A program made the position numbers and the translations under genes. From a virus, in IMG/VR virus record IMGVR_UViG_3300030102_006951, positions 64,001 through 128,000 of that record: a DNA stretch of 64,000 nt. One strand, given 5' to 3'. The notes under the pieces are model-generated. The model had not been told where the DNA came from, made no database searches, and saw nothing but the letters and a program-made list of their open reading frames with translations. Below are positions 1,708 to 63,816 of this stretch, piece by piece. Every line of letters starts with the position of its first letter. Position 1 is the first letter of the stretch.

Positions 1708-1726
1708 AGATAAATTATTTAAGTCA

Positions 1727-1787
1727 AATATATAACTTTATTCTTTAAAAATCAACTATTGATTTTATTATAAATATTCTTTATATT
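1727..1787. promoter_or_regulatory. Divergent pair of sigma70-like promoters
   Basis: TTGATT-N17-TATATT on both strands: + 1759-1764/1782-1787; - 1755-1750/1732-1727. The -35 boxes form AATCAA-cta-TTGATT. Confidence 0.55.
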
Positions 1788-1815
1788 TAGTTAAGTTAAT
1801 AAATAAACAAAATAT

Positions 1816-2031
1816 ATGCAAGGAGCACCGATTTTTGGTAAAATAGAGTTATTAATTAAAGATAAGGGTGGAATTAATAAAGAAGAGTACTATGATTCTG
1901 GTATGGTAATTACTGGGAATTATATCATTATTGTTGTCAATGAAAGAGATGATGTTGAGACAACAAATTCAAGTACTGGAATAATATATAAAATGGAAGA
2001 CATAAAGTCTTACAGAACGCACGCAAAATAA
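1816..2031 (+). CDS. hypothetical protein
   Basis: ORF track; first gene after the + promoter, tightly packed with the next gene. Confidence 0.7.
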   Translation: MQGAPIFGKIELLIKDKGGINKEEYYDSGMVITGNYIIIVVNERDDVETTNSSTGIIYKMEDIKSYRTHAK

Positions 2032-2036
2032 AAATT

Positions 2037-2465
2037 ATGATTTTAGAAAGAGTAGAAAAAGATAATTTGGTAAATGTTATTTACGAGTCATCAAATATCG
2101 TAGCATCAACTTATGATAAAGCAAGGGGGGATTTAAATGTTATATTTAAGAATGGGGGTAGTTATACCTACCAAAATGTTCCGTCTACAGATTATTTTAG
2201 ATTTGAGACCGCTGATAGTCAGGGTAAAGAAATTAATAAGACAATTAAAAAATATTCATTTTTAAAACATGAGAAAGTTAATACTGACGATGTAATTAAA
2301 AAAATAAAGACCCTTAAAAACGATGAAATTAAATCTTTAGAAGTCGGTCTTGTGTCTTTAATGAAGAAAACAATAGATGATTACGAATCAAATGTTAAAT
2401 TAGTTGACCATGACATAGAAAAACTTAATAAAATGATTAATTTATTAATTAACGCTAAAAAATAA
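2037..2465 (+). CDS. KTSC-domain protein
   Basis: SSNI..YD....L.V.FKNG..Y.YQNVP...F..ADSQGK pattern typical of KTSC. Confidence 0.8.
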   Translation: MILERVEKDNLVNVIYESSNIVASTYDKARGDLNVIFKNGGSYTYQNVPSTDYFRFETADSQGKEINKTIKKYSFLKHEKVNTDDVIKKIKTLKNDEIKSLEVGLVSLMKKTIDDYESNVKLVDHDIEKLNKMINLLINAKK

Positions 2466-2469
2466 ATTT

Positions 2470-2787
2470 ATGGAAGATATTAACGAAGAGGCCAGGATAA
2501 AAATTGAGGATTTAAGAAAAAAATACGTAATATCAGATGAGGATTTAAAACTATATAAATCACAAAAGCTTTTAAAATCTTTTAAAGGTGTTACTAATTT
2601 GATGCGAAGTGAAGGGCTATACAAAACATTTAAAGGGGATTTACACTTTGAAGATATTGATGATGAAGAGTTTCATAAACTAAGGGGTTATTTAATTCAA
2701 CACATTGATTTAATGGAGTTTTATTTAAAAAATCAAATTAATAAATTAGAAAAAAATATTGATGACTATGATACAGACCAAGATTAA
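2470..2787 (+). CDS. hypothetical protein
   Basis: ORF track, operon packing. Confidence 0.65.
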   Translation: MEDINEEARIKIEDLRKKYVISDEDLKLYKSQKLLKSFKGVTNLMRSEGLYKTFKGDLHFEDIDDEEFHKLRGYLIQHIDLMEFYLKNQINKLEKNIDDYDTDQD

Positions 2788-2791
2788 AAGT

Positions 2792-3769
2792 ATGAACATA
2801 GATGAACAATACTTATCTATTGCTAAATTAATATTGGATGAGGGTATTAATAAAGAAGATAGGACTGGTACTGGTACTAAATCAATATTTTCTGCACAGG
2901 TGGTTCATAATATGTCTGAAGGGTTTCCTTTACTAACAACCAAAAAAATGTATTGGAAAGGAATTGTAACAGAATTGTTATGGTTCTTACGTGGTGATAC
3001 AAACATCAAATATCTTGTTGATAATGATTGTCATATTTGGGATGGGGACGCTTATAAGAGCTATAAAGTATGGGCTGATGATTTATCTAAAACCCATATG
3101 TATTTACCTTACACAAAAGAACAATTTATTGAGAAAATCAAAACAGATGATGAGTTCGCAAAGAAGTGGGGTGAATTAGGTCCAGTATATGGTAAGCAAT
3201 GGAGAGATTGGGGTGGTTATTTTTCAAACGGTCACTGGAATGGTCAAAATAATAGTACAGGTTTACATATTGGTGGGGTGGACCAAATCCAAAACCTAAT
3301 AGATTCGCTTAAAACAAATCCAGATAGTAGACGATTAATGGTTAACGCTTGGAATGTTGGTGAATTAGACCACATGACACTTCCCCCTTGTCATTGGGCA
3401 TTTGAGTTGTATACTGAAGAAACTGATTTAGGTAAAAGAAGGTTATCACTTAAGTGGCATCAACGAAGCGTTGATTTGCCATTAGGGCTACCTTTTAATA
3501 TTGCCTCATATGCTTTGTTATTGGAGATACTGGCCAAAGAGGTTAATATGATACCAGGTACGTTGATTGGTGATTTAACAAATGTTCACATATATAATGA
3601 CCAGATTGTAGGTATATTAGAACAACTTAATGCGAACCCATACAAATATGATTACCCAAATTTAGTTATTGGTGATAACGCAACTTGGGGTAATGATTTT
3701 TTAGTGTCTGATTTTCAACTTATAGGGTATAACAGTTACCCAAAAATTAAAATACCACTCAGTAATTAA
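2792..3769 (+). CDS. thyA: thymidylate synthase
   Basis: DRTGTGT, FPLLTTKK, ELLWFL, LGPVYGKQWR, PDSRR, LPPCH, QRSVD, GLPFNIASY, HIY. Start moved to the ATG at 2792. Confidence 0.97.
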   Translation: MNIDEQYLSIAKLILDEGINKEDRTGTGTKSIFSAQVVHNMSEGFPLLTTKKMYWKGIVTELLWFLRGDTNIKYLVDNDCHIWDGDAYKSYKVWADDLSKTHMYLPYTKEQFIEKIKTDDEFAKKWGELGPVYGKQWRDWGGYFSNGHWNGQNNSTGLHIGGVDQIQNLIDSLKTNPDSRRLMVNAWNVGELDHMTLPPCHWAFELYTEETDLGKRRLSLKWHQRSVDLPLGLPFNIASYALLLEILAKEVNMIPGTLIGDLTNVHIYNDQIVGILEQLNANPYKYDYPNLVIGDNATWGNDFLVSDFQLIGYNSYPKIKIPLSN

Positions 3770-3783
3770 AAATTTTAAAAGTA

Positions 3784-3921
3784 ATGATTATTAATATAAT
3801 ATTATTCATACTCGGTTTATTTTTATTTCATACCTATGTTTATCCCATCATAGATGGTTTCATAGACGGATATAGGGATGCCAAAAACGGAAGACCGTAT
3901 AATGATAAAGAAGAAGAATAG
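3784..3921 (+). CDS. small membrane protein (45 aa)
   Basis: Manual translation MIINIILFILGLFLFHTYVYPIIDGFIDGYRDAKNGRPYNDKEEE; hydrophobic N-terminus. Confidence 0.55.
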   Translation: MIINIILFILGLFLFHTYVYPIIDGFIDGYRDAKNGRPYNDKEEE

Positions 3922-50138: not shown

Positions 50139-51815
50139 ATGGGTTTTAAGACAAAATTAGATTATTCAGATAATAGACAAATAAGACAAACAGAGAAAAC
50201 CTCTACCACTCTATCTGGTGCAACAGTGTTTGGTATACCATTTAGTGGGTTAACAACTGGACCCGATTTATCAGCTACTGGTGATACTAGTGAATTTAGT
50301 TTAGTTATCAGTACATTTAGTGGTAATAATACAACTACAAATTTTACTTGGTTTGACCCTAGTATGGATATTGTCAACCCAACCGTTTCGGCTATAACTC
50401 CAGTTACTAGTGGTGTTACGCAAGAAATTGTACCCGTTTTTGGCCCTTCTACCACTGCGACCACGGTTGATGGGTATGATGTGGTTTTATCTTACAGTGG
50501 AGTTGGTTTTGATTTAACAGTTACTAATATAATTAGCGGTGCTGGACCAACTTATATTGGTACTGTTGTTCATAACTTAGTAACATTTTATAGTGCTGCA
50601 ACATTAGATTTCCTGGGTAGACCTATTTGGGTTGACAATCCAGAAATAACAAGAACTAATAGGCTTATAGTCAAAAACAATCCGACCATTGGTTATGTTT
50701 TAACTTGTGATACGGCTGAAGGGGAGGCTGTGTGGGGTCCTGTATCTGGTACATCGTCTTCTGGTGTAACATTCTGGGAGGAAGGTGGTACTGGTAATAC
50801 AGCAATTAAAGACAATAAAGGTACTCATACGATTAATGGTACTTCAAACAACTCCATGATAACTGGTGGGCTTAACAATATGGTTAAAACTTCATTAGGT
50901 ACTGGAATTTTAAGTGGTAGGGGAAATTCAATAGAGGATTTGGCTAATTATTCTACCATTATTGGTGGTTTAGATAATAAAATTGAAAATTCTCAAAGGT
51001 CATCAATTATAGGTGGTAATCAAAATATATTGATTGGAGCTTCTAACTCCACTATTTTAGGTGGTGAAGATATTACTGGAACATCTAATAATACCGTTTA
51101 TGTGGATAATTTAGATATTAAAAATGATTTAGTAATTAATAATTTAGGTTCTGGCCCAGGTACTACAGATTTAGGTGTTGACGCAACTGGCGTTGTTGTG
51201 GACCAAGCATCAGATATAAATTTAAAAGAAAATATTAATACAATAGAAAACGCATTAGACAAGGTTTTAAGCTTGAGAGGTGTGACATACAACTGGAAAG
51301 ATAGACAAAGGGGTGGTAACGACTTAAGAATGGGATTTATTGCTCAAGAAGTTGATGATGTCGAACCCAATTTATCTTATATGGGAACTTCTGGTTTTAT
51401 GGGTGTACATTACAAAGATTTTCCAGCGCTTATTGTTGAAGCAATAAAAGAATTAGTTAATAATAAAAAAATAACTTTTAATAAAGAGGAGTTAATTTTT
51501 GAGACTCAAACAATAGCTTCGGAAGATAATAATATAGAGTTAAATTATAATGGTACTCATGAGTCATCTATTGATGGTGGTATTACTGTAGTTAAGGGAA
51601 TTGATGAAGATAATGATTCCACATTCGTAGTTGATTCTGTGGGTGATTGGATTACAAATACACACTTAAAACCAAGTGGTTTAGTTATTCCAGAATATAC
51701 GCCAACATCGACTGAAGATTTAAACGGTAAGGTTGGTGAAATAAAGTGGGATGACAAATACTTATATGTAAAGACCAATAATGGTTGGAAAAGGTCTGGA
51801 CTTGAAACATTTTAG
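50139..51815 (+). CDS. tail fibre/spike protein with a peptidase S74 intramolecular chaperone domain
   Basis: SxIIGGxxN solenoid repeats; ASDINLKENI..ALDKV..LRGVTYNW..GFIAQEV..Y..LIVEAIKEL. Confidence 0.85.
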   Translation: MGFKTKLDYSDNRQIRQTEKTSTTLSGATVFGIPFSGLTTGPDLSATGDTSEFSLVISTFSGNNTTTNFTWFDPSMDIVNPTVSAITPVTSGVTQEIVPVFGPSTTATTVDGYDVVLSYSGVGFDLTVTNIISGAGPTYIGTVVHNLVTFYSAATLDFLGRPIWVDNPEITRTNRLIVKNNPTIGYVLTCDTAEGEAVWGPVSGTSSSGVTFWEEGGTGNTAIKDNKGTHTINGTSNNSMITGGLNNMVKTSLGTGILSGRGNSIEDLANYSTIIGGLDNKIENSQRSSIIGGNQNILIGASNSTILGGEDITGTSNNTVYVDNLDIKNDLVINNLGSGPGTTDLGVDATGVVVDQASDINLKENINTIENALDKVLSLRGVTYNWKDRQRGGNDLRMGFIAQEVDDVEPNLSYMGTSGFMGVHYKDFPALIVEAIKELVNNKKITFNKEELIFETQTIASEDNNIELNYNGTHESSIDGGITVVKGIDEDNDSTFVVDSVGDWITNTHLKPSGLVIPEYTPTSTEDLNGKVGEIKWDDKYLYVKTNNGWKRSGLETF

Positions 51816-51817
51816 TA

Positions 51818-53533
51818 ATGAGTAATTTAAAAAATTATAATTTTAATAAGATTGATACTTACTTAAGTGAAAGTGAGTACTATGATTTTTATTTAGCTCA
51901 AGATGAGATAGCCTCACCATGCGTTTGTGATGATTCAATCAATAACGAATGCTTAGTTGTGCACTACGACTTTAACAACCCTAATATATATTCAACTGGT
52001 ATTACTTCAGCTAATACAATATATAGTTTATCTACTTGGTCTGAAGCTTTTAACACTGGTCACACGTTTGAAACATTCGGTTTAACTGGAATTGACAACG
52101 GGTATATTGAATATATTAAAGAAATTGGTGATAATAAAAATACTGGGTTAACTAAAACTATTACTGGTACAACAACTGTAATACCTTCTGGAGATACAAG
52201 ATTAACATTAAATATAGTTAGTGGATATACTGGTCAATATATTTACCCAACTGAAATAATAGAAGACTATGGTGTGTTAGGTGATTACCTTTCACTTTGT
52301 GGTGGATTTTATCAAGGTTATTATAAACTAGATGGTTATTCATATGAGGTATTACCTACGAGGGTTCCAGAGGCTTGGGTTGCCGATTTTTGGTTAAATA
52401 AAACAGAGGCTTTATGTTCTTCAGTTACTGGAACTACATTAAATGATAAGTATCCAAATAATAAAGGGTTTTTCTTTTATATGGGTACTAGGGCTGAAAA
52501 CAAGTATTGGAATGTTTTTAGTGGTAATAGTAGTGGTTGTGTAAGTGGTTGTACATCAGGTACTGGTTGTACTGGAACGGTTGAAACCTTTTGTACAGTG
52601 CCTAAGGAAACAGACGTTTCTTTTGTTGGTAGTGAGGGGTTTCCAATTAATTTATCTCCACCACCTTTAGAGATAGACGAAATAAGAAATCAGTTCTTAA
52701 TATATGGTTACGCAGATGAAAATAAGTGTCATAAGTGTGGTTCTTCAATGGATGGTTATGCTACTAGAAGGGTTTGTGAATTTAGTGGTGATTCAATAAC
52801 TGTGACTGCTTATACTCAAGAGGTTACTAATTATCAGAACCCGTTTTTGGTGTATGGTCAGGCTGGTAGTAATGCCAGATGTGGTAAATGTGGTCATATA
52901 AATACAGATTATGGAGACAAGACTGTTTGTGATTTTAGTGGTTTTACTTCAGACTTACTGGAATTAGATAAAGATAACGATATTGTGGATAATGCTATAG
53001 GTTTCAGAGTTAAAGATGATGGTAGTATAGGTTATAGGTATTTATCTTTAACTGGTAAATGTGATGGTGATGATTATATTAGCGGTGTAACCGTAAATGA
53101 AGAATATTCATTACCAGGAGTTGTTAAAGATGACGAATGGACTAATATAACAATAAGATTTACTATGCCAGAATATGATGAGTGTGATTTAAAACACGGT
53201 GATAGAAGAAAAGGTAAGTTAATGTTTTATATTAATTCAAAATTAAAATTTGTTTCAGATGAAGTCGATGAGTTCATAGCTAAAAGACTTTATGAATATA
53301 AAGATAAACAGTTAGGTGTTCCGTTTAATATTAGTTTGGGTGGCGGTTCACAAGGCTTATTAGAGTCAATGACTTTTGACGGTCAAGACCCAGATGATTT
53401 ATCACTTATAATAGAAAATAATTTTGCTGGAACATTCATTGGAAATGTTTCTCAATTTAAATTTTTTACTTGTAATGTGAATTGGTGTGAAATTACACAT
53501 ATTTATAATAAAAATAAAGTTAGATATAATTAA
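51818..53533 (+). CDS. virion protein, Cys-rich, with a LamG/ConA-like C-terminal region
   Basis: WTNITIRF..LMFYINSKL..ISLGGG..FIGNVSQFKF; two CxxCG repeats. Confidence 0.6.
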   Translation: MSNLKNYNFNKIDTYLSESEYYDFYLAQDEIASPCVCDDSINNECLVVHYDFNNPNIYSTGITSANTIYSLSTWSEAFNTGHTFETFGLTGIDNGYIEYIKEIGDNKNTGLTKTITGTTTVIPSGDTRLTLNIVSGYTGQYIYPTEIIEDYGVLGDYLSLCGGFYQGYYKLDGYSYEVLPTRVPEAWVADFWLNKTEALCSSVTGTTLNDKYPNNKGFFFYMGTRAENKYWNVFSGNSSGCVSGCTSGTGCTGTVETFCTVPKETDVSFVGSEGFPINLSPPPLEIDEIRNQFLIYGYADENKCHKCGSSMDGYATRRVCEFSGDSITVTAYTQEVTNYQNPFLVYGQAGSNARCGKCGHINTDYGDKTVCDFSGFTSDLLELDKDNDIVDNAIGFRVKDDGSIGYRYLSLTGKCDGDDYISGVTVNEEYSLPGVVKDDEWTNITIRFTMPEYDECDLKHGDRRKGKLMFYINSKLKFVSDEVDEFIAKRLYEYKDKQLGVPFNISLGGGSQGLLESMTFDGQDPDDLSLIIENNFAGTFIGNVSQFKFFTCNVNWCEITHIYNKNKVRYN

Positions 53534-53542
53534 ACAAAAAAA

Positions 53543-56500
53543 ATGGCAAATAATAGGTTAATACTTAGAAAGATGGTTAGTCCATGGGTTACAGACGCTG
53601 TGGATATAACAAGAAATACAACATTAACACATGTTGAACTGGATAGTAATTTTATTTACTTAAAGGGTGAGGTGATAGAATCAGCATCTTTAGATGGTGG
53701 TAAATTATCTTTAGGTAAAATTAATGGTGGCTCCATAGAAGTTGATATGGGTTCATTATCTGGTGATACAGCACACACCGTTAATTTATTGAATGAATTA
53801 AAAAATGAATTAGAGGCTAATGTTCTTTGGGAGGCTGGTTCTTCTGGAAGAAAATCAATTAGACGTAAAAATGATACTCAAATTGATTCAAGAGGTAGTT
53901 ATTCTCTTTCTGAGGGTAAAAATACTTTAGCTAGTGGTGACGCTTCACACGCTGAAGGTGACGGAACTGTAGCTAGTGGTAAGGCTTCACATTCTGAAGG
54001 TACTAATACTGAGGCTAGTGGAGGTAATTCACACGCTGAAGGTTTTAGTAATGTTGCTAGTGGTAACAATTCACACGCTGAAGGTTCAGATAACGTAGCT
54101 AGTGGTAACAATTCACACGCTGAAGGTTCAGATAACGTAGCTAGTGGAGTCGCTTCACATGCTGAGGGTACTGGTAGTGTTGCTTCTGGTAATGCTTCAC
54201 ATGCTGAAGGTTCTGAGACTGTGGCTAGTGGAGTCGCTTCACATGCTGGAGGCTCTGTAAGCGAGGCTAATGGTGATGTTTCTTTTGTACATTCTAATAA
54301 TTCAAATTCAGATGGTAAAAGAAGTGCTATTTTAGGTGGTGATGATAATTTTGTTGAATCTGGAGGTCAAAACTCTGGTGTGTATGTCGGCTTAAGTAAT
54401 AGAGTTTTAGGTGTTAATTATGAAGATATTGTTAATAAACTAAAAGTTGAATTAGATAATTCAATTTCTAATAGGGCAAATGATAAAAAAGTATTTGATG
54501 ACGCTAAAGAAACTCTTGAAATAAAAATTGAACACGCTGATAAAAATATAAAGTTAAATGCATTGGATATTGAAGCTTACAAAGCTGATATTTCTGAAAT
54601 AGATGCGGAAATTGGTAAATTGGATGAAAACTCCAAAGAGGCTTTAGCATTACAAGACTTAAGAGATAAAAAAGAATCTGAATTAAAAATGAAGGAAGAA
54701 GAGAATGCCACTCTTTTAATTGAAAAAGAAAATTCAGAAAAAGAATTAAAAAAATTAATTGAAGATGAAAATGATGCTGTTAAGCTATTTGAACAAACAT
54801 CTTTAAAATTACAAGCTGAAATAAAATACAATGAAACTCTTTTAGAAACTGAAGATAATCATCCACCAGTTAATTCAGCTATTATAGCTGGTAAAGACAA
54901 TATGATTGATAGTTCTTCTGACTCAATTGTTGGCGCTGGTAGTGATAACGTACTAAAAACTGAAGTTAAAAATTCGGGGATATTTGCTGGTTCAGAAAAT
55001 GAGATAAGTGGTGATGAATATTCAAAATTAATTAAACAATTAAAATATGAATTGTCAGTGGCAAATGAAACTCATGATTATAAAACTTCAATATTAAAGG
55101 AAGAAATTGATTCATTAAAAGAAGAAATAGCTTTTACTAAGTTTACTATTGATAACACTAAAAAAGAAATTGCTGAACTAACAAAGGAATGTGAAGGTGA
55201 AGGCACTAATAATGGTGGTCTGGCCTTATTACAAGAAGATGAGAGTGCGTGTGAAAAGTTGAAGATAGCTAACGCTAATTTAGAAAAATTATCGAAAAAA
55301 TTAGAAGATTTAAATGAAACGCTAAAATCATTAGAAGATGAACTTTCTACCATAAATGAAAAACATGCGTCTTATCAGAAATTTATTACAGAAAAAATAG
55401 CTGAATTATCCGCTATATGTTCTGATGATAAAAACGCACCTGTAGATAACTCTGCAATTATTGCTGGGGCTAATAATCAAATTACTTTATTAAGTGATAA
55501 CTCTGCTATTGTTGGTGGTCAAGGAAATAGGATAATGAATTTATCAAATACGGTAATACTTGGTGGTGGAGATATTACTGCGAGAAAAGATAATACCGTG
55601 TATACACCTAGCCTTAATATTAAAGCTAATCTTGATAGAGATAATTCTTTAACTCAAGTATTAGTTAGGGATGCTGATGGTTATATTAAGTATAAAGATG
55701 TTAGTTCGTTTACAGATTTAAATGTTGTTAGTGGTTCTTATGACCCAGAAACTGGAACTGTAACTATGACTAATAATGAAGGTGATACATTTGAGATAAC
55801 TGGTTTCGCAAAAGAATTAACTGATAGCTACACTACAAATGCATATATAGAAGGTTCTACAATGTATTTTGATAATAACGTCAAAGGTGAAAAATTTTAT
55901 AGCGTTGATATAAGTAGTTTAATAGCTGAAGATGAAAAGGGTGATTGTGCTGAAGATAAATGGAAAGAATATAATGACCAAGCCGACTTATATTCAGAGT
56001 ATCTTAAACTAAAATTAATTAGTGATGAGATTAAAGAAGACATAGATGATAAAGAAGCTGAGCTAAAAAAATTACAAGGTCATCATTGTTCAACTCCTGG
56101 TTATATAATAGAAAGTCTTAATATATTAGGTGATATTGTTTCCATAGATGGATTTGCAGATAAATACCAAGACCTTAAAAATTTATCTAAACAAGAGGGT
56201 GATGGTAATATTATGCATGCTATTAACTCATTAATTAACTATCTTGGTGATTTAGATTTAGAAGGTTTAGGTGATGAAGATAAAAAAACTATTGAATCGT
56301 TTATATCGGCTAATAAAGAGCGTTTAGCAGCAATGCTTGGATATAATTCAGAATTATATGATTTGTATATTGAATTATATGGTAGATATCAAGCTGGTGA
56401 AATTATCAATTGGGATAATGATAAGAATAAATTACAGGTAGAGCTTTTCAATCTAAGAGATACTATAAATCAAATTATTAATGATTTGAATGGTCTTACA

Positions 56501-59500
56501 AATATATTAACTCCATCAGATGTAGATGCTATACAGGTGTATATTGATGAGTTAATTGATTCTGGCATGCCAGAAGACCCAGCATTAATTAAACAAATTA
56601 AGGAATTAATAAGTCTATTAGACGGATTAAATAAGTTGTTAAAAGATAATGAAGATAATCTAAATAAGTTCATTGAAGAGCATAACTTTTTTGATATAGT
56701 AAGTTTTGGAGCTTATATGCCAATTAATGACACTAACTTTGATTGTTGGGCTTTAAGTCAATTAGAAGACAGGATTGAAGAGTGTTGTACTGGTGGAGAA
56801 GAAGAAGTAAGGGGTAAATGTTCTGAAGCCCTTTATGCACAATATCAAAAACAAGCTTCTGAATATAGTAAAATTAAAGCTAGTTACGATACTTTATTAG
56901 CTACTCAATTAGAATTAAAAGAATCTATTTCTTTAGGTAAATTAGAGTTAGAAGGGTTGATGACCCAAATTAGTGATACTCAAGAGCAAATAATTACACT
57001 TGAAAAAGAGTGTGAAGCTTTTAGTAATCCTTCTGGACTAGCCTTATTGGAAGACCCACAAATTAACCCGTGTGAAGAGCTGGGTAAAACAAAAACACTT
57101 TTATTGAATTTACAATCACAATTAAAAGAACTCGCTGCTGATATTAAAGAAAAAGAAAAATCTTTAGGTGAAATCGAAATTCAAATGGGGGCTATAGAAG
57201 AATCAGAAATATTAGAATTTGAAGTTTATATGCCAGTTAATGAAGTTAATTTTGATTGTTGGACTGAGAATGAGTTAAAAATAGATTTAGAGACTCAAAT
57301 AACTAAAATTCTAGAAACAATTGGTTACGATTCTAGAGGTGAGTGTTCTGATGAACATTACAATGAATATAAAAAGTTAGTTAGTGAATTAATCAAATCA
57401 AATGAGGTTATTGAAACTAAACGTAAAGAATTAGCTGAGAATAATTTAATAAAAACAGAACTTGAAAAAGAGATTGATGACCTTGAGAAAGCGTGTGCCG
57501 AATTCAAAGCAAGCCAAGCCGATAAAAAGGCATTAAGTTTATTAGACCACGCGGAGTTTGAAAATAATCCTTGTAATACGCTTATGGGTAAAATAGAAAT
57601 TTTGGATTCTATAAATAAACAGATAGAAGACCAAATTAATTTTATTGATGCTTGGGAATCGTCTAGTGATTATGACTTATTTAACAGATACGCACCAATT
57701 AATGAGGTTAACTTTATTTGTTGGAGGATTGACCAATGTTGTAGTGAGGAAGAAGAAAAGGGCCCATGTGCTACTGAAAAATGGAAAGAATACACATCCT
57801 TAGGTGAACAGTATCTAGAATATGAGAAAATACAGTCTCAAATTGATGTTATTGATAAACAAATATCAGATAAAGAATCTGAAATTGATTCGTTATTAGA
57901 AAATCTTGGTTATATACCAAAAAGTCAGGCTATGTTGTCCCCAGCTAATATTATTTTTGCTGGTGATGATGATGATGATGGTAAGTCTTTAAAATTATTA
58001 TTAGAAGAGGATTTTAATCCTTTAAAATTATTATTATTAGAAAAAGATGGTGATGATGATAAATTAACTGGAAGTATTCGTTTTCGTGATTGGTGGTGTT
58101 GTAGAATTCAGAAAAACCCAGCTTGCTGTTATTTATTTGGTAAAAAATTATTTGGTAAACTTCAAAATATAGGTGGAGTTGGTATTGAGCCAGATGATAA
58201 TATTTTTGGTGCTGTTAAAGGATTGAAGGCTGAAATTGATAGTTTAAATAAAACCTCAGCAAGTGGTGACGGTCAAGTAAATATTCCAACTGAATTTTCG
58301 AATATGTTAATTGAGTTGACAAAAATGGAAGAACAAACTGTAGCTTTGAATAGTCAATATTTTAATAGTATTAAAATATTTGAGGAAGAGGGTGATGCTA
58401 AGTCGGCTTATACAAATCCTAAAATAAGTGGTTACCTTACAGATTTAGATAAAGGTTCGAAAGAATTACAAACTCAATTGGATTCACTGCCTGATGGTTC
58501 GGATACTAATGGTCAGTTACAAAAACTTATCAACGACTTAAGTCGCAAAGAAACTGAATTTGATTCACAATTAACATCATTAATTAATGATTTAGATGAT
58601 TTAATTAAACTAAGGGACGTCTTAATTGAGTCATTAGCCACTTTAGGTGATGTATCAGGTTTTGGAGCTTATATGCCAATTAATGACACTAACTTTGATT
58701 GTTGGGCTTTAAGTCAATTAGAAGACAGGATTGAAGAGTGTTGTGCTGAAGACGTAAAAGGTGAATGTGCTAGTGAAAAATATGCTAGCTATAAAAAACA
58801 AGCTCTTGAATATGAAGAACGTCAACAAGAAAATTTAGTTAGAGAGACTGAATTAAATAAAATTAATAATGAAATATCGGATAAAGAGAATCAATTAGCT
58901 GCATTAAAGGCAGAACTATTGAACTGTGAAAGTCAGGGTGCTGCGTTGGCATTATTGGAAGACCAAGACCCTTGTGATTTTTTAAAAGGCCAAATTGCTA
59001 AGTTGGAGGCTGAAATTAAAGCCCTTAAAGCCTCAGCGAAAAGCATTAGTGATGAAATTAAGGAATATAATGATTCGGGAGCTGAAGAATGGCTTAATAG
59101 GTTTATGCCAATTAATGAAGTTAATTTTGATTGTTGGACTGAGAATGAGTTAAAAATAAATTTAGAGGCTCAAATAACTAAAATTGTAGAAACAATTGGT
59201 TACGGTGATAGAGGTACTTGTTCTAGTGATAAATACAAGCTTTATCGAGATAAATTAAGCGATGCAGCTAATATTATTGAAAAACAGGGTATTATTGATG
59301 ATTGTAAAGATAATATTGTAAGCTGGGAATCGACCATTTCAGATTATGAAGCTTTAATTGCGAAACTTAGTTCGCAAATTCCTGTTGATGTTAGTCAGAT
59401 TGCAGTGTTAAAGTCTAATATTGATGAATTGAAAAAAGATATTAATTCATGTAAAGAAAACATCAATACAAACGAAAAGGAAATTAGAGGTTTACTTGAA

Positions 59501-60610
59501 AGTAGTGAATGGGCAGATATTACTGAAGTTAAAAGTTTCATATCAGCTTATGGTCCAGATAACGAAGTTAACTTTGATTGTTGGTCTGAGCAGCAGATTA
59601 TAGATAAGGTTGGTTATGAGAATAGAGGTGAGTGTTCTAATGAAGCTTATGCTACTTATTTGGATGAAGCTAGGGAAGCTGAAGAAGCTAACGCAGCTTA
59701 TGAAGCACAAAAAGCTGATTTAGAAAGAGCTGAAAATGAATTATCGGACAAACAGACTAGATTAGCTGAATTAAAGGCAAAACTAGTAGAGTTAGGCTGT
59801 AATGATGCTCAGAATAGTGATGGGTTGAAATTATTGCAAGAGCCAGACACTTGTGATGATATTATAGCTCAAATTCAGCTACTTGAGAATGAAATTAAGG
59901 CCGATAAAGAAAATATTAAGAGTTTAAATAATCAAATTAAGGAACATGAAGCTAGCGATGCTTATATTTTCAATGAAAGATACATGCCAGTTAATGAGGT
60001 TAACTTCATTTGTTGGGAAAACGACAACATTAAGGAACAATTAGATAGAGTTGAATCTAAAATAGATGAATGTTGTCAAACATCTATGGCATACGATTTT
60101 GAAAGCGCCTTAACTGAGCTTAGAGGTAAGGAAGGTAAGGGTGATGCTAATATAGTAGTTGGTAAATTCCCTAAAGTTTATGAAGCTTTTGAAGCTAACC
60201 CTAAATTTATTATGGGTGATTATGATGAACTTGTAGATATAAATAGTTCATTAGAGTCAAATAAAGATATTATAGTTTCGATGATTGGTAATGATGCCAA
60301 TTTAATTGAGAGTTTTAATAATACAAAAGTAGTTACTGAAACATTAATGGCTGAAGTTATAAAAACGAAAGATGAAACTATTAATGGACTTAATGGAAAA
60401 ATTGCTTTATATCAATCACAAATTAAAGCGTTAAAAGATTCAGGTGGAAAGTTAAATACTGATAATATAGAAGACCACGTTAAGTCTATAGAAGCTGAAA
60501 GAACCTCCAAAAATAAGTTATATGAATATATGACCACTAATTTACAAACGTTCAAAAGTGCTATTAGTGACATTTTAGATGCTTATGAGGCTACAAAAAA
60601 AGTAGGTTAA
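53543..60610 (+). CDS. giant (2355 aa) fibre-like protein: anchor, SHAEG repeats, solenoid with coiled-coil inserts, 7 Cys-bracketed coiled-coil cassettes
   Basis: N-terminus shared with 60625 and 63846; about 8 (A/N)SH(A/S)EG repeats; 7 x (K/R)GxC...PxNxxNFxCW. Confidence 0.8.
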   Translation: MANNRLILRKMVSPWVTDAVDITRNTTLTHVELDSNFIYLKGEVIESASLDGGKLSLGKINGGSIEVDMGSLSGDTAHTVNLLNELKNELEANVLWEAGSSGRKSIRRKNDTQIDSRGSYSLSEGKNTLASGDASHAEGDGTVASGKASHSEGTNTEASGGNSHAEGFSNVASGNNSHAEGSDNVASGNNSHAEGSDNVASGVASHAEGTGSVASGNASHAEGSETVASGVASHAGGSVSEANGDVSFVHSNNSNSDGKRSAILGGDDNFVESGGQNSGVYVGLSNRVLGVNYEDIVNKLKVELDNSISNRANDKKVFDDAKETLEIKIEHADKNIKLNALDIEAYKADISEIDAEIGKLDENSKEALALQDLRDKKESELKMKEEENATLLIEKENSEKELKKLIEDENDAVKLFEQTSLKLQAEIKYNETLLETEDNHPPVNSAIIAGKDNMIDSSSDSIVGAGSDNVLKTEVKNSGIFAGSENEISGDEYSKLIKQLKYELSVANETHDYKTSILKEEIDSLKEEIAFTKFTIDNTKKEIAELTKECEGEGTNNGGLALLQEDESACEKLKIANANLEKLSKKLEDLNETLKSLEDELSTINEKHASYQKFITEKIAELSAICSDDKNAPVDNSAIIAGANNQITLLSDNSAIVGGQGNRIMNLSNTVILGGGDITARKDNTVYTPSLNIKANLDRDNSLTQVLVRDADGYIKYKDVSSFTDLNVVSGSYDPETGTVTMTNNEGDTFEITGFAKELTDSYTTNAYIEGSTMYFDNNVKGEKFYSVDISSLIAEDEKGDCAEDKWKEYNDQADLYSEYLKLKLISDEIKEDIDDKEAELKKLQGHHCSTPGYIIESLNILGDIVSIDGFADKYQDLKNLSKQEGDGNIMHAINSLINYLGDLDLEGLGDEDKKTIESFISANKERLAAMLGYNSELYDLYIELYGRYQAGEIINWDNDKNKLQVELFNLRDTINQIINDLNGLTNILTPSDVDAIQVYIDELIDSGMPEDPALIKQIKELISLLDGLNKLLKDNEDNLNKFIEEHNFFDIVSFGAYMPINDTNFDCWALSQLEDRIEECCTGGEEEVRGKCSEALYAQYQKQASEYSKIKASYDTLLATQLELKESISLGKLELEGLMTQISDTQEQIITLEKECEAFSNPSGLALLEDPQINPCEELGKTKTLLLNLQSQLKELAADIKEKEKSLGEIEIQMGAIEESEILEFEVYMPVNEVNFDCWTENELKIDLETQITKILETIGYDSRGECSDEHYNEYKKLVSELIKSNEVIETKRKELAENNLIKTELEKEIDDLEKACAEFKASQADKKALSLLDHAEFENNPCNTLMGKIEILDSINKQIEDQINFIDAWESSSDYDLFNRYAPINEVNFICWRIDQCCSEEEEKGPCATEKWKEYTSLGEQYLEYEKIQSQIDVIDKQISDKESEIDSLLENLGYIPKSQAMLSPANIIFAGDDDDDGKSLKLLLEEDFNPLKLLLLEKDGDDDKLTGSIRFRDWWCCRIQKNPACCYLFGKKLFGKLQNIGGVGIEPDDNIFGAVKGLKAEIDSLNKTSASGDGQVNIPTEFSNMLIELTKMEEQTVALNSQYFNSIKIFEEEGDAKSAYTNPKISGYLTDLDKGSKELQTQLDSLPDGSDTNGQLQKLINDLSRKETEFDSQLTSLINDLDDLIKLRDVLIESLATLGDVSGFGAYMPINDTNFDCWALSQLEDRIEECCAEDVKGECASEKYASYKKQALEYEERQQENLVRETELNKINNEISDKENQLAALKAELLNCESQGAALALLEDQDPCDFLKGQIAKLEAEIKALKASAKSISDEIKEYNDSGAEEWLNRFMPINEVNFDCWTENELKINLEAQITKIVETIGYGDRGTCSSDKYKLYRDKLSDAANIIEKQGIIDDCKDNIVSWESTISDYEALIAKLSSQIPVDVSQIAVLKSNIDELKKDINSCKENINTNEKEIRGLLESSEWADITEVKSFISAYGPDNEVNFDCWSEQQIIDKVGYENRGECSNEAYATYLDEAREAEEANAAYEAQKADLERAENELSDKQTRLAELKAKLVELGCNDAQNSDGLKLLQEPDTCDDIIAQIQLLENEIKADKENIKSLNNQIKEHEASDAYIFNERYMPVNEVNFICWENDNIKEQLDRVESKIDECCQTSMAYDFESALTELRGKEGKGDANIVVGKFPKVYEAFEANPKFIMGDYDELVDINSSLESNKDIIVSMIGNDANLIESFNNTKVVTETLMAEVIKTKDETINGLNGKIALYQSQIKALKDSGGKLNTDNIEDHVKSIEAERTSKNKLYEYMTTNLQTFKSAISDILDAYEATKKVG
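53930..54250 (+). repeat. 42-bp/14-aa tandem repeats (SHAEG..VASG; YadA-head/Hep-Hag-like)
   Basis: Repeated GCTAGTGG..TCACA(C/T)GCTGAAGG; two copies are exact. Confidence 0.85.
56703..56788 (+). repeat. 86-bp perfect direct repeat, copy 1 (copy 2 at 58659-58744)
   Basis: Base-by-base comparison; encodes FGAYMPINDTNFDCWALSQLEDRIEECC. Confidence 0.9.
57230..57329 (+). repeat. 100-bp direct repeat, copy 1 (copy 2 at 59105-59204; 4 mismatches)
   Basis: Encodes MP(V/I)NEVNFDCWTENELKI(D/N)LE(T/A)QITKI(L/V)ETIGY. Confidence 0.88.
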
Positions 60611-60624
60611 ATAGAATTATTTAA

Positions 60625-62124
60625 ATGAATAGTAATTTAATATTAAGAGTACTTAACAGTCCTTGGATAACACCAGAGCCCGATATTACTAAGGGTTCTG
60701 TGTTATCTCATGACGATGTAGATAATAACTTTATTTATTTAAAGGGTGAGGTGGTATATACAGCTCAAACTTTAGGTAGCACCATAACACTTAAGAAAAT
60801 AAATGGTAATGATATATCGTTTGATATTGGTGGTTCTGGGGGTAGTGGAGTTTATTGGACTTCTGGTTCCACTGGTAATGGCTCAATAAGGGTTGTTAAT
60901 GGAGGTACTACTGATTCTGAGGGTGATTATAGTTTGGTCACTGGTTTTGATAATTTAATTAGTTCTTTAGGTGGTATTGATTCAGCTGATAATTCTTCAA
61001 TAATAGGTGGTAATCAAAATACTTTAGATAGGAGTAACGATTCTTCAATAATTGGAGGTAATTTAAATTTTATTAGAAGAGATAATAAAAGGTCTTTAAT
61101 ATTAGGTGGTCATAAGAATCAAATGTTAGGGCTATATAATACATCAATTAGTGGTATAACTACTTCTGATAATTCTATTATTGGTGGTAGTGATAACACG
61201 GTGGCTAACTCTTCAAACAGTGGTATATTGGGTGGTTTAGATAATGTTATAGAATCTACTGAAGGAAACTTATTGATACAGGATACCATACAAAATTCAC
61301 ATATAATTGCTGGTAGAGATAATGTAATCTCACCATCACATATTGATTCTGTAATTCTTGGTGGTAGAGAAAACTCATTAGTTGGTAATAGAAGTAATCC
61401 ACTTAATACTAATATTGATGGGATTGAGAATGGAATACTTGGTGGTTATCAAAATAAAATATCTTATGTTGGTAGAAACGGTATAGTTGGTGGTACTAAC
61501 AACTTAATAAATGGTGAGGGTAACCCAACTAATAATGTTATTTGTGGTGGTGATAGTAATCATATTAAAGAACTTGCAAATATAAACTCATTTATTGCTG
61601 GTGGTGTTAATAACACCATAGATGCAGAATTATCTACCCCTTCTAGGTATTCACCTAATTCAGCAATAATAGCTGGTAGTGGTAATACAATATTCGCTGA
61701 AAGTACTGAAACAGACGGTAACATAGTAATAATAGGTGGTAATAATATTACCGCAACTAGTAAAAATACGGTATATGTTCCTAATTTAGAAGTGACTGGA
61801 CAGGCTTATACACCTATTCATGATAATTTAACTGGTAGTACGTCATTCATTCCAGACTGGAATAATTCAAATGTACAAATATTAACTCTTAGTGGCAATA
61901 CTAGTATTAGTGGTGGTATAGCTACAATGAAGGGTGGTTCATCGTATACCATGATAGTTAAGCAATCTAACGGTGGTTCTCATAGTATAACTTGGGATTC
62001 TACTTATAAGTGGGAAGATGGTTTGGCTCCAGACCTAACATCTGCTGATGGTTCAGTGGATATATTAACATTCATATGTGACGGAACTAATTTACACGGT
62101 TTAATAGCAAAAAACTTTCAATAG
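60625..62124 (+). CDS. tail fibre protein with IIGGxxN solenoid repeats
   Basis: Shared N-terminal anchor; many GG-N repeats; C-terminal ITW...W..G.AP.LT...VDILTF domain. Confidence 0.75.
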   Translation: MNSNLILRVLNSPWITPEPDITKGSVLSHDDVDNNFIYLKGEVVYTAQTLGSTITLKKINGNDISFDIGGSGGSGVYWTSGSTGNGSIRVVNGGTTDSEGDYSLVTGFDNLISSLGGIDSADNSSIIGGNQNTLDRSNDSSIIGGNLNFIRRDNKRSLILGGHKNQMLGLYNTSISGITTSDNSIIGGSDNTVANSSNSGILGGLDNVIESTEGNLLIQDTIQNSHIIAGRDNVISPSHIDSVILGGRENSLVGNRSNPLNTNIDGIENGILGGYQNKISYVGRNGIVGGTNNLINGEGNPTNNVICGGDSNHIKELANINSFIAGGVNNTIDAELSTPSRYSPNSAIIAGSGNTIFAESTETDGNIVIIGGNNITATSKNTVYVPNLEVTGQAYTPIHDNLTGSTSFIPDWNNSNVQILTLSGNTSISGGIATMKGGSSYTMIVKQSNGGSHSITWDSTYKWEDGLAPDLTSADGSVDILTFICDGTNLHGLIAKNFQ

Positions 62125-62127
62125 TGT

Positions 62128-63816
62128 ATGGGATTTTTTACGCCATTTGTATATAGAAAGGGTGTTACTCAAGGTGGTGGGGGTAACCTACCAAATGGTT
62201 TTGACGTATTAGATGGTCATAATGCTATTATTTGGTTAGATAGTTCTATAGATGTATTTAATGATGCGTCTGGCACACTAGCTTCAACTGGACAAACAGC
62301 ATATCAATGGAACGACCAAACGTCCTATAATAATCATGCTATACAATCTAATTCTAGTAATAGACCCACATACACAAGTGGTGGTACATGCATTAATGAA
62401 GGTAAAGTATTATACTTTGATAAAGATGAAAACGATTTTATGTCAGTTACTAATGACGCCTCTTTTAATACTTTATCTGGGTTAACGTTATTTATGTATT
62501 TTAATAAGAATGATTCTCAGGATTGGTTTACTTGCTGTGATGTAATTACCGAATATGCTGACGGTGAATTTACTTATCCAGCTTCACCTTTTGGGGGCTG
62601 GACCGTAGATTGTGTTGAGCAAAATGTTGATGAATCTTATCTCAGATTTTCATATAGCGACCCAGCCGAATCGTCACCTTATGGATATAATGAATTAAAA
62701 ATTAGGACACCTAAATTGGATGACTCTGCTTCCAATGAATTTGAATTATATACATTTAGAGTTGGTGGTTCTGGGGGTACTGAACCCACACTTATTGAGT
62801 CTTGGATAAACACCACTTTTGAGGATAGCGAGTTGGGTGATGGTAGTGGTATCACTTATACTACAACTACTGAGCCTTTGAGTATTGGTGGTTCATCGGT
62901 TTCCACTAATAATCCGTCACCAGTTTCTTTTGGTAATTATATATTATATGATGGTCCATTAAGTAATTCAGCTGTCACTAAAGTTCAAAATTATATTATT
63001 AACAGATGTTGGGGTGATAGTCCTACACCACCTAGTGGTGATTTATTATTAGACTTGGACCCGACAAAGGGTGTTTATAGTGATGATGGTGTAACTTTTG
63101 CTTCTGACGGCTCTGATGTTTATAGGTGGGACGACCAAAGTAGTTATAATAATAATGCCATAACTAATAGAGTTATTTATGATAGTGGTTCTACTGACCC
63201 CACATTTAATGTTTTCGGTAATGCTGGTAAGCCAAATGTATTCATGTCCTGGTTTAATGATGAGACATTTGTTGTTGATAATTCTGATGCAGATTTTGAT
63301 GTTCAAGAATTAACTATGATTGCTGTTGTTGAACCTTATCAAACTAACCCAGGTTCTGGGGCCCCGTTAATATCAAATAACTGTACTTTTGGAGGTTCGG
63401 GTGTTAATGGTTATACTATTGAAGTTATAGGTACTTCTGGTAATAGGAAGTGGGCTGTTTGGATGCAAGGAACTGGCGTTAATGATAACTTCGGTAATGA
63501 ACCAGCTTATACGGGTGGCACACCACAAATAGTAACTTGGAGGTTTAGTGCTGGAACAATTGGTCAGCAATATGTTCAAATAAATAATGAAGTTAAAATG
63601 TCTGGAGATGCTGAGACTAGTATTAATTTTGGATTACCTAGTGATTTGTTAATTAATAGTAGATTTAATGCTGCTGTAGCTAATTGTGATGAGACTAATT
63701 TATCCCCAAACTTGGGTATGTATGTCTATAGATTAATGATTTATGGTGAATACCTGGATGATGCAACTATAAATAGTTTTATATCGGATTTAAATGATTT
63801 CCATGATATTTATTAA
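62128..63816 (+). CDS. tandem LamG/ConA-like domain virion protein (putative receptor-binding)
   Basis: Two repeats starting WLD/LD..V..W.DQ.SYNN.A and ending ILYD/MIYG..L. Confidence 0.7.
   Translation: MGFFTPFVYRKGVTQGGGGNLPNGFDVLDGHNAIIWLDSSIDVFNDASGTLASTGQTAYQWNDQTSYNNHAIQSNSSNRPTYTSGGTCINEGKVLYFDKDENDFMSVTNDASFNTLSGLTLFMYFNKNDSQDWFTCCDVITEYADGEFTYPASPFGGWTVDCVEQNVDESYLRFSYSDPAESSPYGYNELKIRTPKLDDSASNEFELYTFRVGGSGGTEPTLIESWINTTFEDSELGDGSGITYTTTTEPLSIGGSSVSTNNPSPVSFGNYILYDGPLSNSAVTKVQNYIINRCWGDSPTPPSGDLLLDLDPTKGVYSDDGVTFASDGSDVYRWDDQSSYNNNAITNRVIYDSGSTDPTFNVFGNAGKPNVFMSWFNDETFVVDNSDADFDVQELTMIAVVEPYQTNPGSGAPLISNNCTFGGSGVNGYTIEVIGTSGNRKWAVWMQGTGVNDNFGNEPAYTGGTPQIVTWRFSAGTIGQQYVQINNEVKMSGDAETSINFGLPSDLLINSRFNAAVANCDETNLSPNLGMYVYRLMIYGEYLDDATINSFISDLNDFHDIY

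Follow-up and report, generated by a model that had tools for sequence, protein, structure and literature searches.

A clamp-and-hairpin repeat in a giant fibre protein of an uncultured marine jumbo phage, with probable helical side arms

The stretch of DNA analyzed here, referred to below as the window, comprises 64,000 nucleotides (nt) of the IMG/VR virus record IMGVR_UViG_3300030102_006951 (positions 64,001 to 128,000 of that record), and its + strand contains an uninterrupted open reading frame (ORF), at 53543-60610, whose translation in the ORF list is a protein of 2355 amino acids (aa), denominated P0001. As far as can be read from its sequence, P0001 is a phage tail fibre or spike type of protein, which joins a solenoid of SHAEG repeats to a clamp-arm repeat that has not been described previously, while its function can only be inferred. 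The preferred interpretation, to which a probability of roughly 0.65 is attributed, is that the fibre is built from clamp modules that bear hairpin side arms, with a function that is presumed from this architecture.

Regular-expression searches of the P0001 translation recovered seven copies of the opening motif (K/R)GxC..(W/Y)xxY, at aa 799, 1090, 1265, 1406, 1739, 1890, and 2028, and seven of the closing motif PxN(E/D)xNFxCW, at aa 1060, 1231, 1385, 1712, 1856, 2005, and 2149. An initial annotation of this DNA had predicted seven cassettes opened and closed by these motifs, all of which were found in their predicted places. The CC pair that was said to follow the closing motifs often is present after four of the seven (aa 1081, 1399, 1733, and 2177). 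The five Cys-bracketed C-x-(G/A)L(A/S/K)LL-x-C loops (aa 550, 1157, 1318, 1795, and 2086) are likewise present, with exactly the sequences quoted, and their core, [GA]L[ASK]LL, occurs five times, against an expectation of 0.07 and a maximum of three in 20,000 shuffles of the sequence. The protein contains 40 Cys residues, all within its helical part (aa 550-2178), and 36 of these belong to motif-defined pairs. In the family as a whole, the paired motifs take the form GY-x-DRG-x-[CA]-S..[FY]..Y and then [FY]-x-P-x-NE-x-NF-x-[CA]-W, in this order in all seven P0001 modules and in 62 open-close pairs distributed over 22 proteins.

The opening and closing motifs of a cassette appear to form one small clamp domain, whose helix is prolonged by the hairpin, because in distant relatives a mere 34 residues separate the two motifs, and the hairpin is missing. 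Ten repeats of P0056, P0032, P0040, and P0053 have a spacing of 33-34 aa, most repeats fall at around 88-170 aa, and the long ones at 266-311 aa. The hairpin itself comes in three length classes across the family: absent, approximately 90-170 residues, and approximately 270-310 residues with an extra apex region. Complete arrays always begin with an opening motif and end with a closing motif. The earlier description of a cassette that opens with one motif and closes with another is thus correct for the motifs, whereas the unit itself is better understood as a single clamp domain with an inserted hairpin.

At its two conserved positions, the clamp has C and C in 47 cassettes, A and A in 13, and C with A in none, the Ala form being found in a Cys-free branch (P0014, P0032, P0040, P0053, P0056, P0061, and P0080), in which the motifs read DRGxAS...NFxAW. 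As the two positions change jointly between Cys and Ala, the clamp pair is most likely a buried disulfide. The lengths in the structural model suggest that the closing Cys can reach the opening Cys, and the closure of the base by this pair is plausible. The conserved Y..Y side of the helix, in its initial turns, is probably packed onto the extended YxPxNEVNF stretch. A metal site at the clamp was considered and rejected, given that there are only two ligands per chain, and that both are replaced by Ala together in the relatives. A bond between the closing Cys of one module and the opening Cys of the next was also rejected, as the arrays run from open to close and the 34-residue form joins the pair of a single unit. 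The proposal of hairpins closed at base and tip by disulfides or metal can therefore be retained for the base pair as a plausible disulfide, and for the tip pair as a fit to the geometry, while the metal is discarded at the clamp. In module 5, the bonds would be C1742-C1864 at the base and C1795-C1811 at the tip.

The interpretation of each cassette as an antiparallel helical hairpin is supported by the symmetry of the arms, a central helix breaker, and AlphaFold2 models that match coiled-coil arms of known structure. Measured from the conserved Cys residues, the arms of modules 2, 3, 5, and 7 are 64/62, 50/49, 53/53, and 55/53 aa long, respectively, varying among modules, yet matched within each one, and in module 6 the predicted turn is flanked by a Cys pair (C1921/C1970) at distances of 26 and 23 residues. 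The metagenomic homologs P0003-P0005 share the opening and closing motifs of P0001. Among 23 short cassettes of four proteins, with lengths of 104-161 aa, 16 have a Pro or Gly no more than two residues from the midpoint, while 5000 shuffles averaged 3.6 and reached 10 at most (P = 0.0002 in the non-redundant set, n = 17).

The AlphaFold2 model of module 5, based on the alignment of the 23 cassettes, consists of a helix (12-70), a loop, and a second helix (78-122), with a predicted local distance difference test (pLDDT) score of 84 and a predicted template modelling (pTM) score of 0.73. This is a confident hairpin, rather than a continuous parallel coil, and it supports, together with the arm symmetry and the midpoint breaker, the antiparallel cassettes that had been predicted. 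A three-module model has the same hairpin fold in all three modules. The prediction of one module as a three-copy complex scored 0.13, against a mark of 0.42, which weighs neither for nor against a trimer. The best structural matches of the single module, recovered by Foldseek and VIA-align, are antiparallel coiled-coil arms, with VIA Z-scores of 10-11 and Foldseek template modelling (TM) scores of up to 0.68. The wide VIA-align search returned a flat, generic list of helical hairpins, while the Foldseek search of the module model against the PDB gave nothing at E <= 0.001. As the Z-scores are flat at 10-11, these matches reflect a common architecture, and not homology.

The same fold is required closer to the N-terminus, where two coiled-coil stretches (aa 293-447 and approximately 490-631) interrupt the NSxxxxG beta-solenoid, because an insertion in a solenoid has to return to its point of origin, and both inserts must therefore be hairpins. 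The SHAEG repeats and the two coiled coils of around 150 aa within the solenoid are thus present as described initially. P0005 also has insert 2, without its Cys pair.

Based on these observations, the proximal half of the fibre is a conventional beta-solenoid followed by a beta domain, after which seven modules of an undescribed kind are arranged in series. Each clamp, of approximately 45 residues, would be formed by the first helix turns (GY-x-DRG-x-C-S..Y..Y) set against the extended Y-x-P-x-NEVNF-x-C-W, with the Cys pair in a buried disulfide. The clamp helix would extend outward as a two-stranded antiparallel coiled coil, with arms of 50-64 aa (around 7-9 nm), before the chain returns to the clamp, and in modules 1 and 4 this coil would bear an extra apex region. 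As the chain returns to its start after each module, the shaft would consist only of clamps and of linkers of 15-29 residues (47 in the Cys-free branch), while the hairpins would either project as side arms or lie alongside it as shingles. The fibre is probably barbed or branched, rather than a smooth rod, although the lateral projection of the hairpins is something we infer. The branched appendage of the initial annotation can be upheld in this respect, since the return of the chain implies a branched or bottle-brush topology. The contrast drawn there with beta-rich fibres is wrong for the protein as a whole, the first 800 aa of which are beta-structured. The arms might function as rigid spacers, or as weak, multivalent adhesion arms that widen the reach of the fibre into the polymer layer of the host surface. 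A 1590-aa relative encoded by the viral contig L006 has four modules in the middle of the fibre, between two copies of the beta domain found at aa 632-798 of P0001, followed by a beta-rich distal part of approximately 550 aa. Given this mid-fibre position, the array can be seen as a shaft element, and not necessarily as the receptor-binding end.

A number of points weigh against this interpretation. The switch between Cys and Ala follows two clades, which implies few independent events. The cytoplasm in which the phage is assembled is reducing, and a dedicated oxidase did not turn up in a record that is only about half complete: there was no DsbA, and no match to the sulfhydryl oxidase family Evr1_Alr, a result that is uninformative, as the oxidase control matched no genome. 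AlphaFold2 tends to fold any helix-loop-helix monomer into a hairpin, and in the three-module model the clamps have a pLDDT of less than 50 and the pTM is 0.32, so that the arrangement of the hairpins relative to the shaft is not provided. Even so, the evidence for the hairpins and their Cys staples is convergent, albeit indirect, and supports this reading. The phage record also includes one ordinary thioredoxin (G000:C1:59614-59895, outside the window).

An alternative arrangement, which seems rather doubtful, is a rod of trimeric hairpins, in which the three hairpins of each level bundle along the axis as a six-helix segment, in the manner of the P22 gp26 needle tip or the post-fusion class I fusion proteins, to form a thick rod with no free arms. 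The single-module model has coronavirus S2 fusion cores in its list of structural matches, and trimers are the rule in phage fibres whose beta-solenoid is of this kind. In the coils of P0001, however, heptad positions a and d have an occupancy of about 0.8 and 0.6, respectively, while e and g are polar, with 30-50% charged residues, which indicates a narrow two-strand seam that fits a pair of helices better, albeit not decisively, than a six-helix core, whose inner helices would be hydrophobic at e and g as well. The return of the chain to its base also means that at most two bundles can be collinear, and seven modules would have to branch or stack.

The apex of the hairpins is the focus of two further alternatives. 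An LxLL-acidic element is found at eight apex sites, in inserts 1 and 2, in modules 2, 3, 5, and 7, and in module 4, which has two LKLLLE copies. The apex loop of this phage lineage has the form (G/A)LxLL(E/Q)(E/D), and is closed in most cases by a second Cys pair. The Cys-bracketed loops have a net charge of -2 to -5 and no aromatic residues, and their summed Wimley-White interfacial energy is unfavourable, at +5 to +10 kcal/mol. Four of the five relatives with a readable apex (P0003, P0004, P0005, and the L006 protein) lack the tip Cys pair and have a plain Pro/Gly turn with no LxLL motif, while in several relatives the return helix has IALLEE or IAVLEQ as its first turn. P0012, a Tara fragment that is the only closer relative found (52-56% identical), keeps the apex motif and the flanking Cys, including the apex motif of module 2 and the LSLL of module 3. 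This retention at 52-56% identity indicates that the motif and its Cys are under selection. The apex region of module 4 contains a cationic (+6) peptide rich in Trp and Phe, WWCCRIQKNPACCYLFGKKLFGKL, with two CC pairs (aa 1512-1541; 58076-58165), which is the sole segment of P0001 with a favourable membrane-interface energy. Module 4 and its long counterpart in P0003 share 43% identity, and the WWCC..CCY of this peptide is nearly invariant in the latter.

In the more elaborate of these two alternatives, the fibre would be a barbed receptor-binding organelle, with up to 27 rigid helical arms per trimer, in which the host envelope would be bound in a multivalent manner by the disulfide-closed LxLL-acidic loops together with the module 4 peptide, WWCC..CCY, specificity would reside in the apex loops rather than in a beta-rich distal knob, and the DNA of the clamp junctions would allow arms to be swapped. 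This scenario is considered unlikely. At the clamp junctions, modules 1 and 4 have a DNA identity of 95% (56692-56792 versus 58648-58748), and modules 2 and 5 one of 89% (57229-57363 versus 59104-59238). The interiors of the modules have no DNA repeat of 60% or more, and a protein identity of only 22-40%. The identity of the junctions suggests gene conversion, or their use as recombination points.

The second of these alternatives, which formed part of the initial annotation, is that the apex loops are hydrophobic tips that insert into a membrane or surface, and thus constitute the business end of the fibre. Its attraction lies in an LxLL core that recurs at the eight apex sites far above chance, and is kept in P0012 at 52% identity. 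This reading is nevertheless quite unlikely, and the claim of membrane contact is not supported, given the acidic loops with their unfavourable interfacial energy, and the absence of the Cys pair from four of the five relatives. As the loops are acidic and non-aromatic, the motif and its Cys are missing in orthologs, and LALLE-like stretches begin the return helix in relatives, it is no less likely that LALLE serves as a structural cap than as a ligand, and the insertion of the apex loops into membranes is unlikely.

A continuous parallel coiled-coil shaft, in which the cassette helices all run in one direction, in the style of T4 fibritin, with the NFxCW...RGxC junctions as nodes and the mid-cassette loops as bulges, is very improbable. 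Segmented parallel coiled coils are a common design of alpha-helical phage fibres, such as T4 fibritin and the T5 pb1 domain (PMC12750041), and only 15-29 residues separate the close of one module from the open of the next. A shaft of this type would leave unexplained the helix breaker at the exact midpoint of cassettes that range from 104 to 161 aa, the equal arms measured from the Cys residues, the open-first, close-last arrays, and the 34-residue spacing of the two motifs, and it would coexist with solenoid inserts that share the apex motif and are forced to be hairpins. The two models differ considerably in length, with aa 799-2158 spanning approximately 200 nm if the parallel shaft were true, and a few tens of nm in the hairpin model.

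There is practically no chance that P0001 is an SMC/SbcC-like protein, as implied by the name "chromosome segregation ATPase" given to P0005 and P0006 in the JGI annotation and by an SbcC-like match to phrog_77 (E 1.8e-7, aa 1640-1982), since this match covers only coiled coil, the protein begins with a fibre anchor and then a tail-fibre solenoid, and the Pfam scans of P0001 and P0006 found no ATPase head, hinge, or CxxC hook. Membership in the SMC/Rad50/SbcC ATPases was rejected on the same scans, in which neither protein matched SMC_N, AAA_23, or similar families, and, in the absence of an ATPase head, the JGI name reflects coiled-coil bias.

The clamp-hairpin module can be compared with a number of known systems. 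To our knowledge, almost all the phage fibres of known structure are either beta-structured or parallel trimeric coiled coils. T4 fibritin, the coiled-coil domain of T5 pb1, and the reovirus sigma-1 protein have repeated heptad segments with short non-helical breaks, as in P0001, although they are parallel trimers in which each segment adds length, whereas the segments of P0001 fold back and are clamped at the base. The distal part of the P22 gp26 tail needle is said, in work attributed to Olia et al. in 2007, to be an "inverted coiled coil", in which the helices fold back antiparallel. This is a single terminal fold-back in a parallel trimer, in contrast with the seven serial, clamped hairpins of P0001, and in the PDB profile search gp26 (4lin, E 2e-4) was only a generic coiled-coil match over the arms.

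The fold of a single module, a rigid arm that extends from a base and carries an apex element, is also that of the SerRS arm, the dynein stalk, Rad50/SMC, p85 iSH2, the efflux adaptor hairpins, and IpaB. None of these is repeated in tandem in a fibre or has the NEVNFxCW/DRGxC clamp, and the likeness is generic, rather than a sign of homology. Unlike Rad50, P0001 has no CxxC zinc hook at its apex: there is no CxxC at any coiled-coil apex, and the apex Cys are 16-26 residues apart. The CHCH domain is a twin Cx9C helix-turn-helix stapled by two inter-arm disulfides. In P0001, the spacings are C-x50-64-C and C-x49-62-C, there is no sequence relation, and the context is an extracellular virion. Membership in the CHCH family was rejected, as the spacing of 49-64 residues within the arms is not that of the twin Cx9C. 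The module works like the SerRS, dynein, and Rad50 arms and the CHCH hairpins, then, but is a member of none of these groups. Networks of disulfides do occur in phage virions, as in the Agrobacterium phage Milano (PMC10811340), in which the many structural disulfides are in sheath and tube proteins, while the putative disulfides of P0001 would be in the hairpins of a fibre.

The features of P0001 are listed in Table 1. The six 14-aa SHAEG repeats match phrog_25468 (E 8e-27) and phrog_3279 (E 8e-4), and this region is 43-48% identical by tblastn, over approximately 150 aa, to the tail spike of the Flavobacterium phage vB_FspM_immuto (immuto) and the tail fibre of the Verrucomicrobia phage P8625, which have a homologous SHAEG solenoid. 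The match covers only 6-7% of P0001, however, and leaves the clamp-hairpin modules unmatched. The 14-residue repeat presumably resembles the head of the trimeric autotransporter adhesins (Hep_Hag/YadA_head), although no Hep_Hag match emerged from the Pfam scan at E <= 0.01, whose one result was a weak match to YkyA. Strain variants of 2340-2341 aa differ from the 2355-aa form by one 14-residue SHAEG unit (54050-54091, aa 170-183), which represents variation in the copy number of the solenoid repeat. The seven near-identical strain variants that were aligned are too alike to locate selection. The C-terminal domain is 25% identical (E 3e-12) to the C-terminus of P0005, and its motif YPxxYxxFxxNPKFIxGxFDxL, in a domain of approximately 200 aa, is kept in P0005, P0006, and P0007. 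This domain, which is assigned to no family, could contact a distal component of the fibre or a chaperone.

Table 1. Features of the P0001 gene and its product (positions in the window).
Feature	Positions	Strand	Details
N-terminal attachment domain	53543..53842	+	aa 1-100; conserved in P0005, P0006, L006 protein
14-residue SHAEG beta-solenoid repeats	53864..54418	+	aa 108-292; 42-nt tandem DNA period
Helical hairpin insert 1 in solenoid	54419..54883	+	aa 293-447; EALALQD at midpoint aa 367-373; without Cys; a/d heptads
Helical hairpin insert 2	55010..55435	+	aa 490-631; apex C550-GGLALLQED-C570
Solenoid end and beta domain	55436..55936	+	aa 632-798, TVYTPSLNI ... YSVDIS; conserved in P0005
Module 1, long (clamp, hairpin, and extra apex region)	55937..56749	+	aa 799-1069; open C802, close C1068
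Module 2	56810..57262	+	aa 1090-1240; arms 64/62 aa; apex C1157-SGLALLEDP-C1177
Module 3	57335..57724	+	aa 1265-1394; arms 50/49 aa; apex C1318-ALSLLD-C1344
Module 4, long	57758..58705	+	aa 1406-1721; apex region with two LKLLLE(E/K)D copies and cationic WWCCRIQKNPACCY peptide
Module 5	58757..59137	+	aa 1739-1865; arms 53/53 aa; apex C1795-ALALLED-C1811
Module 6	59210..59584	+	aa 1890-2014; predicted turn at IPVDV; mid-arm Cys pair C1921/C1970
Module 7	59624..60016	+	aa 2028-2158; arms 55/53 aa; apex C2086-DGLKLLQEPD-C2104
C-terminal domain	60017..60607	+	aa 2159-2355; conserved in orthologs

The gene is one of five large + strand genes that are tightly packed at 50139-63816, with gaps of 2-14 nt. 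The first gene of this block encodes a Peptidase_S74 intramolecular chaperone domain, according to the Pfam and PHROG scans, and the fourth matches tail-fibre C-terminal PHROGs. The N-terminal 75 or so aa of P0001 (53543-53770; NLILR..SPW...D.NFIYLKGE) are 44-47% identical to the N-termini of two downstream genes, the ORF at 60625-62124 (stretch 60625-60850) and an ORF that begins at approximately 63852 and runs past the end of the window. The P0001 gene thus appears to be one of at least three paralogous virion fibres with a common N-terminal anchor, which suggests alternative fibres that dock at a single site. The fibre-like neighbours, the anchor common to three paralogs, and the terminase, portal, and gp23-type major capsid protein genes, which are also inside the window, are all in keeping with a fibre gene.

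Directly upstream (51818-53533) lies the gene of a 571-aa protein with 19 Cys residues, and a 572-aa homolog, also with 19 Cys, is encoded directly upstream of the cassette fibre in L006, where the synteny is kept. Given this conserved pairing of the genes, the 19-Cys protein may be a partner or an assembly factor of the fibre.

The window belongs to a 158-kilobase (kb) viral record that is approximately 48% complete. The closest match of the capsid protein is that of phage immuto, and a protein identical to P0001 is encoded by metagenomic contigs that reach 280 kb in length, some of them from Tara Oceans surface samples. Based on the gp23-type capsid protein and its match in immuto, the size of the contigs, and the Tara samples, the source virus is a jumbo myophage of marine origin, as yet uncultured, whose capsid protein is of the T4 type.

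The family defined by the module is tiny. A profile search of 1.84 billion cluster representatives returned 993 matches, nearly all of which are restricted to the coiled-coil positions, while approximately 20 also cover the ends of the profile, all metagenomic and either unnamed or misnamed. The suggested profile comparison across databases thus recovered these relatives, and no known, characterized family. The module falls outside every family of Pfam, PHROG, and the PDB, and the Pfam and PHROG scans of eight members of the family gave only sub-threshold noise. Against the PDB sequences, the module profile recovered only generic coiled-coil matches over the arms, with the clamp positions uncovered, and the minimal clamp repeat of P0056 (53 residues, aa 188-240) had no match. 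The P0001 gene had no megablast match in 50,697 phage records, in which the clamp-hairpin modules were also unmatched, in contrast with the SHAEG region. A profile of the minimal clamp recovered 14 proteins among 5.8 billion clusters, and those with names are all "hypothetical". P0056 itself is a 989-aa protein with the clamp repeat, lacking both Cys and hairpin, encoded at 895-3864 of the 65.7-kb contig L001, on which genes for a family B DNA polymerase and methyltransferases are found as well. Given these genes, a second, quite different virus lineage appears to use the clamp.

A literature search for hairpin-bearing phage fibres found no description of this module, and the present account would be the first description of the clamp-hairpin module family. 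If the proposed architecture is true, a clamp with an adjustable helical arm would represent a new building block of fibres. Its classes of arm, which are either absent, of approximately 45-85 residues, or longer with an extra apex region, would be attractive for the engineering of rigid arms of defined length that display an apex loop. Giant marine phages would, in this case, bear lateral arms on their fibres, which has a bearing on how they find and hold hosts with thick polysaccharide coats.

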